DNA of 64,000 nucleotides, from assembly GCF_001677475.2 (NCBI RefSeq), contig NZ_CP015229.1, one strand, 5' to 3'. Every line of letters begins with the position of its first letter. Positions within the stretch are counted from its first letter, which is position 1. The notes beneath the pieces were generated by a model. That model was not told the DNA's origin. It searched no databases and saw nothing but the letters and a program-made list of their open reading frames with translations. Shown here piece after piece: positions 47,898-56,811 of this stretch. Made by a program: the position numbers and the translations under genes. This stretch comes from Escherichia coli. GTDB lineage: Bacteria; Pseudomonadota; Gammaproteobacteria; Enterobacterales; Enterobacteriaceae.

Positions 47898-50141
47898 TCA
47901 GGCACTTTCGCGAATGGGTTCGATTTCATTCAACGTATCAATTAACGGCTGCGGCTTACCAATAAGATAACCCTGCATATAATCGATCCCCAAAGAGAGC
48001 ACCGCCTCGCGGATCTCTTCGTTTTCAACGTACTCTGCCACTACCAGCATTTTCTTCATTCGCGCCAGGTGGCAAATCGATGCCACTATCTGATAATCCA
48101 GACTATTTGACACAATATTGCGGATAAAACTGCCGTCAATTTTAAGCAGATCGGCATTCACATTTTTAAGCCGCGCATAGCTGGCGTAGCCGGTGCCGAA
48201 ATCATCAATCGCAATCTGGCAGCCTAATTCCTGAAGATGCTGCAAGGTGATTTGCGCCTGCTTAACATTGGTCAGAGCATTACTTTCGGTGACTTCAAAA
48301 ATAAGTTGCCACGCTTCAATCTGATATTTAGCCAGCAACTGACTGACTTCAACAGGAAAACGAGCCTGACATACCGAGGTTGGAGACAGATTAATAGCAA
48401 AACGGTGAGCGGGCATCTTCGCTCTGTTTTCAGCCATAAATTGCAGCGTATGCTCAATGACCCACATGTCGATACTCGACGATAAACCAAATTCGTGCGC
48501 GACCGGCAAGAAGCTATCGGGGCTGATCAATTCATCATTCTCACCTTTCATGCGCAGAAGAATTTCATGGTAAACATCACCACGCATACCGGTAATCGGC
48601 TGGGCCATCAGGAAAAAATGGTTGTGTTCCAGCGCCTGCTGTAGTCGATTCATCATCGCGACTTTATCTTTCAATTCGCGTTGCAAATACATTGCCCCGC
48701 GACGCTGCATATTTTCCGGGGCGTTGGTCACGATGGAAAGTTCGGCGACCGTATTTAGCTCTCCCAGCAGCAGGTAGATATGATTCACTGGCGAGCGCAC
48801 ATAGCAGTAACTGACGCCAATCTGCGGTTGCATCGGCATGCCATCCCAAAAGAAACGAAATTGCTTGAGATGGCTATCCAGTGCGGTAATGCGCTCCTGG
48901 TGCGATTCTGTATTCAGTCGCAGCGCGAGATCGTTACCCGAAAGCTGATAAACATCTTCACCCGGTTCCAGCAAGGGTGACAGCCAGTGAGAAAGTTTTT
49001 GCTTGTATTGAATCCGCAGCATGATGCCATAGTTCTTAACCAGCATTTCCATGCCAGGGATGCGTAAATAACAAAGCGCAGACCAGGGGGCATCACGCAA
49101 CGCGCGATTCAGGGCGCGAACATTTGGCAGATGAACCACCGGGTCCACATACGCAAGCCGCTGAATGCGTCTGACTACCGTTCTCTGACGGGTTGCCAGT
49201 ACAGCCATATAATTGACAATAAAAGAGAATACCAGATAACTGGAGGAGGTTATGGTCAGCTGCGTGGTATAGCCAGGATAAATGGGAATGTAATTTTGAT
49301 AGCTGTGGATGCTGATCATCAACACGACCGCCCAGAGCAGCGAAATCAGCTTATAACCATAGCGCATCGCTCCCCACATCATCAGGGGCAGCAATAATGA
49401 CAAGGTATAGTTGGTGCTAAAAATTGTGCTTTTTTCATTTAACGGCATGCATAACAGCAACAGTAAAGCACCTAATGCCAGTAGCCAGAGTGCGAACTCT
49501 TTTTTGGTGACTTTGACATCAACCTGCTGTTTTAATTGCGAATAATAGCTACGTAAATAAAATGGATTTCGCACTACCCGAATGATGAAGTAGCACAGCG
49601 GGACACCGATCAGATTACCCACCAGTAAGGCCTGATAATTGATTAAAGTCCCGAGGTTAAAAGGCATGACACCGACCAGATTTTCTCTACTCGCCAGTAA
49701 TCCTACAAATGCGGCAAACTGGAAAAGTATCAGAAACAGCGTTGCAGGAAACACAATCTGCCAGAATATACGCTGGGAAATTAAACGGGTATCACCATGT
49801 GAAACGTTGTTACGCCGGGGAGTAAAGACCCTGTAACCGCCCCAACAGAGAATGATAATGATAATAAAATTAGCCGTTAACGAGAGCGTTTCGTAAAAAC
49901 CCAGCTCTGAATATTTGCGGACAAAAATCCCTAAGGCGATCCCTGGCAATGCCGCCCAGCTGAAAAACATCATCATGCTGATCATCAGTGCCAGAGGCAG
50001 ATAAAAGAGAAAAACCTCACCGGAAGAAATATGCGCGAAAGTATTGATGTGGCCGAAAATGGGCAAGATTAAAGAAGGCAGGAACAGCGGAAGCCCCCAC
50101 CATTTATCACGTATTTTTATATAGGTTGCATTCAGTTTCAT
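47898..50141 (-). CDS. pdeF: c-di-GMP phosphodiesterase PdeF (MASE1 - degenerate GGDEF - EAL)
   Basis: 747-aa ORF; hydrophobic N-terminal half and C-terminal EAL domain (QPITGMRGDVYHEILLRM...). Confidence 0.92.
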   Translation of the reverse strand: MKLNATYIKIRDKWWGLPLFLPSLILPIFGHINTFAHISSGEVFLFYLPLALMISMMMFFSWAALPGIALGIFVRKYSELGFYETLSLTANFIIIIILCWGGYRVFTPRRNNVSHGDTRLISQRIFWQIVFPATLFLILFQFAAFVGLLASRENLVGVMPFNLGTLINYQALLVGNLIGVPLCYFIIRVVRNPFYLRSYYSQLKQQVDVKVTKKEFALWLLALGALLLLLCMPLNEKSTIFSTNYTLSLLLPLMMWGAMRYGYKLISLLWAVVLMISIHSYQNYIPIYPGYTTQLTITSSSYLVFSFIVNYMAVLATRQRTVVRRIQRLAYVDPVVHLPNVRALNRALRDAPWSALCYLRIPGMEMLVKNYGIMLRIQYKQKLSHWLSPLLEPGEDVYQLSGNDLALRLNTESHQERITALDSHLKQFRFFWDGMPMQPQIGVSYCYVRSPVNHIYLLLGELNTVAELSIVTNAPENMQRRGAMYLQRELKDKVAMMNRLQQALEHNHFFLMAQPITGMRGDVYHEILLRMKGENDELISPDSFLPVAHEFGLSSSIDMWVIEHTLQFMAENRAKMPAHRFAINLSPTSVCQARFPVEVSQLLAKYQIEAWQLIFEVTESNALTNVKQAQITLQHLQELGCQIAIDDFGTGYASYARLKNVNADLLKIDGSFIRNIVSNSLDYQIVASICHLARMKKMLVVAEYVENEEIREAVLSLGIDYMQGYLIGKPQPLIDTLNEIEPIRESA

Positions 50142-50268
50142 AGATGCTCAGCAGAATCCCCCACATCCTGAAGGAGGTGTATTCAGACAGGCATCCCACC
50201 TGACTTCGAATGATGATTATTCATCACTATAGAGAGCATTAATTCTAAGTGTCATATGAAAGTTCCAA

Positions 50269-50282
50269 TTGATATATATCAA
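50269..50282. promoter_or_regulatory. FNR binding site upstream of pdeF
   Basis: ttgatatatatcaa is a perfect TTGAT-N4-ATCAA palindrome ~130 bp upstream of the pdeF start codon. Confidence 0.7.
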
Positions 50283-50492
50283 ACAAAATAACCCTGATTA
50301 ATGAATTATTACGTTTATCATGTTAATTCATCATTATTACATCATCATTGTAAATAATTAAATTAACTTCCATAACATTAAAATATGTATCCACTGACGC
50401 TTTTTTACATAACGAAGAATTGACCATTTTGTCCTGTTGTGCCTTAATGTAAGTACCGTCCACTGCGTGGGACATACTTCAAGGAACCTTTT

Positions 50493-50684
50493 GTGAGTCA
50501 GGCAACCAGTATGCGAAAACGACACCGATTTAACAGTCGCATGACCCGTATCGTACTGCTCATCAGCTTTATCTTCTTCTTTGGCCGTTTTATCTACTCG
50601 TCCGTCGGTGCATGGCAGCACCATCAGAGCAAAAAAGAAGCTCAGCAATCCACACTCTCCGTCGAATCACCGGTACAACGTTAG
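50493..50684 (+). CDS. yfgG: 63-aa small membrane protein YfgG
   Basis: ORF encoding MSQATSMRKRHRFNSRMTRIVLLISFIFFFGRFIYSS... with one TM helix; flanked by very AT-rich DNA. Confidence 0.8.
   Translation: MSQATSMRKRHRFNSRMTRIVLLISFIFFFGRFIYSSVGAWQHHQSKKEAQQSTLSVESPVQR

Positions 50685-55404: not shown

Positions 55405-56811
<1,407 letters not shown>

Follow-up and report, generated by a model that had tools for sequence, protein, structure and literature searches.

The FNR box of the Escherichia coli pdeF (yfgF) promoter: a known site, its conserved layout and a conserved leader downstream of it

The palindrome TTGATATATATCAA, found at positions 50269-50282 of the 64-kb stretch of E. coli DNA analysed here (64,000 nucleotides, hereafter the window), is almost certainly the FNR operator of the class II, FNR-activated promoter of pdeF (yfgF). 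This 14-mer is the published FNR binding site of pdeF, and the finding is thus correct and already known; FNR control of pdeF has been in print since 2010, with ChIP-seq confirmation following in 2013, and finding the site again adds no new biology. What is established here is the site itself, its geometry and its conservation, and the new contribution of the analysis, a modest one, is a phylogenetic footprint of the promoter.

The palindrome lies in the E. coli ppk-ppx-pdeF / yfgG-yfgH-yfgI / guaA-guaB region, and RefSeq names the gene downstream of it pdeF in 5,423 of 5,426 complete E. coli genomes. Pfam searches of the PdeF protein found MASE1 and EAL domains and detected no GGDEF domain at E<=0.001, in agreement with published accounts of a degenerate GGDEF domain (PMC3718329) and with the label of degenerate-GGDEF/EAL protein given in the earlier note. 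The features on which the promoter assignment rests are as follows:

47898..50141, minus strand: pdeF (yfgF) coding sequence, 747 aa, with MASE1, degenerate GGDEF and EAL domains (open reading frame, translation, Pfam and RefSeq)

50142..50492, no strand: pdeF-yfgG intergenic region, 351 bp, 34% GC (from composition; reported to be H-NS associated)

50269..50282, no strand, serving the minus-strand pdeF promoter: FNR box TTGATATATATCAA, a perfect palindrome centred at about -41.5

50242..50247, minus strand: TAGAAT, -10 hexamer of the class II FNR-dependent pdeF promoter (from sequence; named as -10 in PMC3718329)

50234, minus strand: probable pdeF transcription start (+1), placed from the geometry and the published -41.5 and uncertain by a few nucleotides

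50142..50233, minus strand: pdeF 5' leader, about 93 nt when the putative start at 50234 is counted (placed from that start and the ATG at 50141)

50226..50255, minus strand: alternative sigma-70-like promoter ATGACA-18-TATAGT, overlapping the FNR promoter (consensus scan; Escherichia only)

All 10 of the specified positions of the 14-mer agree with TTGAT-N4-ATCAA, and a search of both strands of the window returned 50269-50282 as the sole exact occurrence. Using 100 dinucleotide-preserving shuffles, the chance expectation for an exact site in the window was calculated to be 0.10, with nine of the shuffles holding at least one match, while 0.0013 exact sites would be expected in the 351-bp intergenic region given its local base composition. 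Sites with one mismatch were no commoner in the window than chance would have them (3 found vs 2.59 expected), so only the perfect site is notable. FNR half-sites start with TTGA and CRP half-sites typically with GTGA; both half-sites of the box, TTGAT and ATCAA, are of the FNR type. The earlier note had described a perfect TTGAT-N4-ATCAA palindrome some 130 bp upstream of the pdeF start in an AT-rich intergenic setting, and each part of this description was upheld: the match is complete and unique in the window, 127 nt separate the end of the box from the pdeF ATG (50141, minus strand), and the spacer has a GC content of 34% vs 52% for the window.

Read on the minus strand, the spacing between the box and the hexamer TAGAAT is exactly 21 nt. 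Numbering the final base of the box as -35 puts the box centre at -41.5 and TAGAAT at -13 to -8; a start at the purine nearest the -10 hexamer would shift the centre to about -38.5 to -40.5. Judged by sequence, box, 21-nt spacing and TAGAAT have the layout of a class II FNR-activated promoter, for which we infer the exact start site and the polymerase contacts. The overlapping ATGACA-18-TATAGT promoter, which was also predicted independently (Shimada 2014), was considered as the main pdeF promoter and rejected, as the upstream alignment showed no conservation of it outside Escherichia.

Across the 351-bp spacer, the window differs from K-12 at three positions (50241, 50264 and 50464), with the box and the -10 hexamer unchanged. 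Position 50241, just past the -10 hexamer, is T in the window and C in K-12, and position 50264 lies within the spacer between the box and the -10 hexamer. A promoter core of 76 nt (50225-50300) showed at least 99% identity to the window in only 4 of 5,402 complete E. coli genomes, and the best match to the window over 801 nt among complete E. coli genomes was 99.5%. The rarity of such matches indicates that the source strain carries uncommon variants beside, not inside, the conserved elements.

In vivo FNR occupancy and FNR-dependent anaerobic expression have been demonstrated by others. In K-12, yfgF is FNR-activated and maximally expressed anaerobically from a class II promoter with a box at -41.5 (TTGAT--ATCAA) and the -10 hexamer TAGAAT (PMC3718329); this promoter is credited, in the account relayed by Lacey et al. 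2013 (PMC3718329), to Lacey, Partridge and Green 2010 (Microbiology 156:2873). The RegulonDB curation table has an entry giving FNR as Activator of yfgF under Anaerobiosis. Myers et al. 2013 (PMC3688515) reported an FNR ChIP-seq/ChIP-chip peak at yfgF/yfgG (Tables S5 and S6); the predicted site under this peak is exactly TTGATATATATCAA, with a PWM score of 16.08, and the peak was assigned to yfgF as the estimated target. In exponential-phase glucose minimal medium, FNR was bound and yfgF expression showed no fnr-dependent change (their Table S9), so FNR occupancy does not always activate yfgF. In an hns stpA mutant, the FNR ChIP signal rose from 0.35 to 1.68 (Table S7), and only in this mutant was a +O2/-O2 ratio of 0.23 obtained for yfgF, corresponding to approximately 4-fold higher expression anaerobically (Table S11; PMC3688515). 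The pdeF-yfgG spacer was likewise flagged 'HNS' in Shimada 2014, and Sarenko et al. 2017 found PdeF to be undetectable aerobically, which they ascribed to anaerobic induction.

Overall, FNR control of pdeF is real, yet condition-dependent and countered by H-NS. In the Lacey 2010 work, induction of yfgF was reportedly greatest in stationary phase at 28 °C. The proposal of anaerobic, FNR-dependent control made in the earlier note is thereby supported by the K-12 promoter work (PMC3718329), the RegulonDB table, the ChIP data and the conserved layout. Of the two experiments it had suggested, FNR ChIP is answered by the published yfgF/yfgG peak containing this very 14-mer (Myers 2013), and fnr-dependent expression likewise has a positive answer, anaerobic activation being on record for K-12 (PMC3718329). 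The output is modulated by H-NS and by growth conditions: no such activation was seen in the wild type in glucose minimal medium (Myers 2013, Table S9).

As an independent test, pdeF orthologue loci were retrieved by protein sequence, and the search was therefore blind to the motif. Upstream regions of 500 nt were then scanned, with up to two mismatches allowed, for 14 full-length orthologues (PdeF 57-93% identical) from Escherichia spp., Enterobacter asburiae, two Phytobacter species, several Kluyvera species and one Enterobacteriaceae isolate. A box with no more than one mismatch was found at 117-136 nt from the ATG in 14 of the 14, the chance of a box in that position range being approximately 0.002-0.003 per lineage as estimated from shuffled upstream regions. 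The same arrangement, with TTGA[TC]-N4-[AG]TCAA upstream, was present on all five pdeF-carrying metagenome contigs (5/5). In a MAFFT alignment, the boxes and a TA(G/A)AAT hexamer lined up unaided as invariant islands.

Taken over 20 pdeF loci drawn from Escherichia, Enterobacter, Phytobacter, Kluyvera and the metagenome contigs, TTGA[TC]-N4-[AG]TCAA was followed by exactly 21 nt and then TA[AG]AAT in 20/20. TTGA and TCAA were invariant in all of them, while N4 was variable, giving nine distinct 14-mers across the pdeF loci. Among 11 representatives, the two half-sites and the -10 hexamer each had a majority-base fraction of 0.95, compared with 0.61 for N4, 0.61 for the 21-nt spacer and 0.54-0.57 for the flanks. 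Conserved elements amid diverging surroundings are the pattern that would be expected if purifying selection maintained a functional class II FNR promoter. The footprint shows anaerobic control of pdeF to be ancestral and under selection, despite the weak induction seen under standard laboratory conditions.

Occupancy of the box by FNR could nevertheless be mostly silent, with H-NS dominating the region and pdeF driven mainly by other inputs such as the overlapping sigma-70 promoter or sigma-S. Consistent with such a situation are the binding observed without fnr-dependent change in glucose minimal medium (Myers 2013, Table S9), the restriction of the ChIP increase and of oxygen-dependent yfgF expression to the hns stpA mutant, the sigma-S RNA polymerase ChIP peak reported inside the spacer and the 'constitutive' RpoD promoter predicted there (Shimada 2014). 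We nonetheless regard it as unlikely, given the FNR-dependent anaerobic activation in K-12 (PMC3718329) and the fact that the alternative promoter is not conserved beyond Escherichia. In addition, box, 21-nt spacing and -10 hexamer are strictly kept across genera, which argues for selection on the activating layout. That the palindrome is an AT-rich chance word, or the site of another CRP/FNR-family protein such as CRP, is effectively refuted: a spacer of 34% GC does favour A/T-rich words and FNR and CRP sites are related, yet the expectation is only 0.0013 sites even with the local composition, the half-sites are kept in 20/20 loci while their AT-rich surroundings diverge, they read TTGA and not the CRP-typical GTGA, and FNR occupies the site in ChIP (Myers 2013).

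Since the perfect palindrome sits within a divergent spacer, it might also, or instead, govern yfgG(-yfgH-yfgI) as a two-way FNR site. yfgG was the divergent neighbour in 19 of the 19 orthologue loci checked, and its expression in the wild type is approximately 2.2-fold higher anaerobically (ratio 0.453; Myers 2013, Table S12). Measured from the box centre, however, its start and predicted promoter are some 180 nt away, beyond the positions from which class I or class II activation operates, and no conserved -10-like hexamer is found at 21 nt on the yfgG side of the box. Furthermore, the peak was assigned to yfgF by Myers 2013, and a term search of the portion of their fnr-dependent Table S8 that was available did not return yfgG. 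Two-way control was rejected as the main reading on the strength of the distance of about 180 nt and the lack of a conserved -10 hexamer on the yfgG side, and we consider it quite improbable. The operator of the pdeF promoter thus stays the preferred assignment for the palindrome.

On the opposite side of the spacer, the yfgG start codon is at 50493 on the plus strand, preceded by its own predicted promoter, gene and promoter together covering 50420-50684:

50420..50456, plus strand: yfgG promoter TTGACC-17-CTTAAT and transcription start (promoter predicted in Shimada 2014; start 2627275 in PMC4447067)

The start 2627275, given in older K-12 coordinates, maps to about position 50456 of the window. 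The offset between K-12 and window coordinates was confirmed by a site in the guaB/xseA spacer, which falls exactly where predicted, at 55421. Myers 2013 placed this weaker FNR-type site, TTGATCTCGCTCAC (55421-55434), beneath a peak of FNR ChIP-seq for which expression did not change in an fnr-dependent way. For the pdeF-yfgG spacer, PgrR (YcjZ) SELEX binding has been reported alongside the sigma-S RNA polymerase ChIP peak. Between the box and yfgG, a 50-aa open reading frame (WP_000017552.1; window 50323-50475, minus strand) is annotated by PGAP in some E. coli genomes. It had no Pfam match, is missing from the K-12 annotation, shows 82-90% amino-acid identity within Escherichia and overlaps the yfgG promoter; it is probably not a real gene. 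Lastly, in pdeF locus L095 (6526-6590 of metagenome contig PPYF01613013.1) only about 64 nt separate the box from the beginning of the YfgG tblastn match, a distance of about 205-211 nt in all other loci; this locus may have a shorter spacer, or the aligned stretch may include sequence ahead of the real YfgG start.

As a side observation, separate from the FNR site, the upstream-region alignment revealed a pdeF leader conserved above the level of the promoter:

50136..50204, minus strand: conserved leader element, about 70 nt (two upstream/leader alignments, a covariance model at 80.2 bits and pair counts)

Within this element, the block CAGGU(G/U)GGAUGCCUG is invariant except at the G/U position, and so is GCAUCU, the six nucleotides directly before the pdeF AUG, the two nucleotides preceding it being usually GA. 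In minimum-free-energy folds of leaders from five genera, (U)GGAUGC repeatedly pairs with GCAUCU(A), and nested within the predicted helix is an inner hairpin that has a CCC/GGG core, genus-specific flanks and GGA in its loop. GGA was present both in the invariant block and in the inner-hairpin loop of all 17 distinct leaders. More specifically, the loop reads GGAUG in Escherichia and in loci L095, L193 and L184, with CA in front of it (CAGGAUG) in Escherichia, L095 and L193. We take this GGAUG loop to resemble the CsrA consensus. Cultures used for CsrA CLIP-seq in E. coli and Salmonella were reportedly aerobic. PdeF is not detectably expressed aerobically, and the absence of yfgF, pdeF, b2503 and STM2503 from the accessible parts of those CLIP-seq supplements therefore says little.

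A covariance model built on the element gave one match per locus, at 61-84 bits, and 87.9% of cells were paired in the pair counts vs 33-53% when the partners were slid. In the inner hairpin, compensatory changes were seen in three pairs, and the covariation score was reached by 1-3 of 500 shuffles, bearing in mind that related sequences can exceed shuffles without any structure. The long-range GGAUGC/GCAUCU helix never varies among the leaders, and its complementarity was equalled by 23% of shuffled leaders, so that this helix is not established. The E. coli leader fold was not unusually stable (z = -0.29), an Rfam scan of 50000-50600 returned no family at E<=1, and no description of the element was found in the literature searched. 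When the 15-mer block was looked up in metagenomes, 115 of the 120 matches listed were chance matches unrelated to pdeF, and the five among those listed that precede a PdeF homologue were exactly the five with GCAUCUAUG downstream; the predominance of chance matches among those listed indicates that no dispersed repeat family is involved.

Two further observations concern the leader. A tiny upstream open reading frame, AUG CCU GUC UGA (50170-50181, minus strand), lies inside the invariant block. Its AUG is conserved in all genera and, as read from the sequences, it mostly has three codons; it extends to 13 codons in Enterobacter asburiae and, with a stop overlapping the pdeF AUG, to 17 in the MGYG-HGUT-00110 isolate. 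Closer to the 5' end, E. coli has a hairpin, GUGAUGAAUAAUCAUCAU (50209-50228, minus strand), and in Kluyvera this position is taken by a GC-rich hairpin of unrelated sequence, CCGCG...CGCGG, which suggests that structure may be kept here without sequence conservation; such a 5'-proximal hairpin might protect the 5' end.

The sequence conservation of the pdeF leader appears solid and the support for RNA structure within it is modest. Candidate identities for the element are a structured RNA, a target of CsrA or of an sRNA, the tiny upstream open reading frame and a DNA operator downstream of the start. We tentatively put forward, as a possibility that is less probable than its opposite, that FNR is only the first layer of control and that this leader, conserved across Enterobacteriaceae genera more than the promoter or the coding sequence, acts as a post-transcriptional switch gating PdeF synthesis once anaerobic transcription has taken place. 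Such a switch might work by sequestering the translation start, through CsrA or an sRNA that relieves or reinforces the block, or through the tiny upstream open reading frame. If functional, the leader would matter more, as it might help to account for the mismatch between FNR occupancy and the output of pdeF.

For the promoter, we propose that FNR holding a [4Fe-4S] cluster would dimerise when oxygen is lacking and would then bind the palindrome, which overlaps the -35 region with its centre about 41.5 bp upstream of the presumed start. Bound FNR would recruit and activate sigma-70 RNA polymerase at TAGAAT, 21 nt downstream, and in the predicted transcript the leader, about 93 nt long, would precede the pdeF message, which encodes a membrane c-di-GMP phosphodiesterase with MASE1, degenerate-GGDEF and EAL domains. 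Oxygen would inactivate FNR and thereby turn the promoter off. H-NS on the AT-rich spacer would lower the access of FNR, making induction dependent on conditions. In this way the site ties oxygen sensing by FNR to c-di-GMP signalling and hence to motility, surface remodelling and peroxide tolerance.

Several known systems can be set beside the promoter of the window. The yfiD site TTGATTTAAATCAA (Myers 2013, Table S6) is, like that of pdeF, a consensus 14-bp box with in vivo FNR occupancy, the PWM scores being high for both, 17.25 for yfiD and 16.08 for pdeF. Textbook class II FNR promoters show strong, constitutive anaerobic induction, whereas the output of pdeF is weak, condition-dependent and subject to interference by H-NS. 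In the yfgF promoter of Salmonella Enteritidis, for which class II was inferred, the box at -41.5 and the -10 hexamer are retained (PMC3718329); the elements there are TTGAC--ATCAA and TACAAT, where the window has a perfect TTGAT half-site and TAGAAT. The TTGAC half-site variant is also found in most of the Kluyvera loci. Closest of all is the K-12 yfgF class II promoter (Lacey 2010, as relayed in PMC3718329), which represents the same locus, with the box TTGATATATATCAA, the hexamer TAGAAT and an identical spacing, and from which the promoter of the window shows no functional difference.
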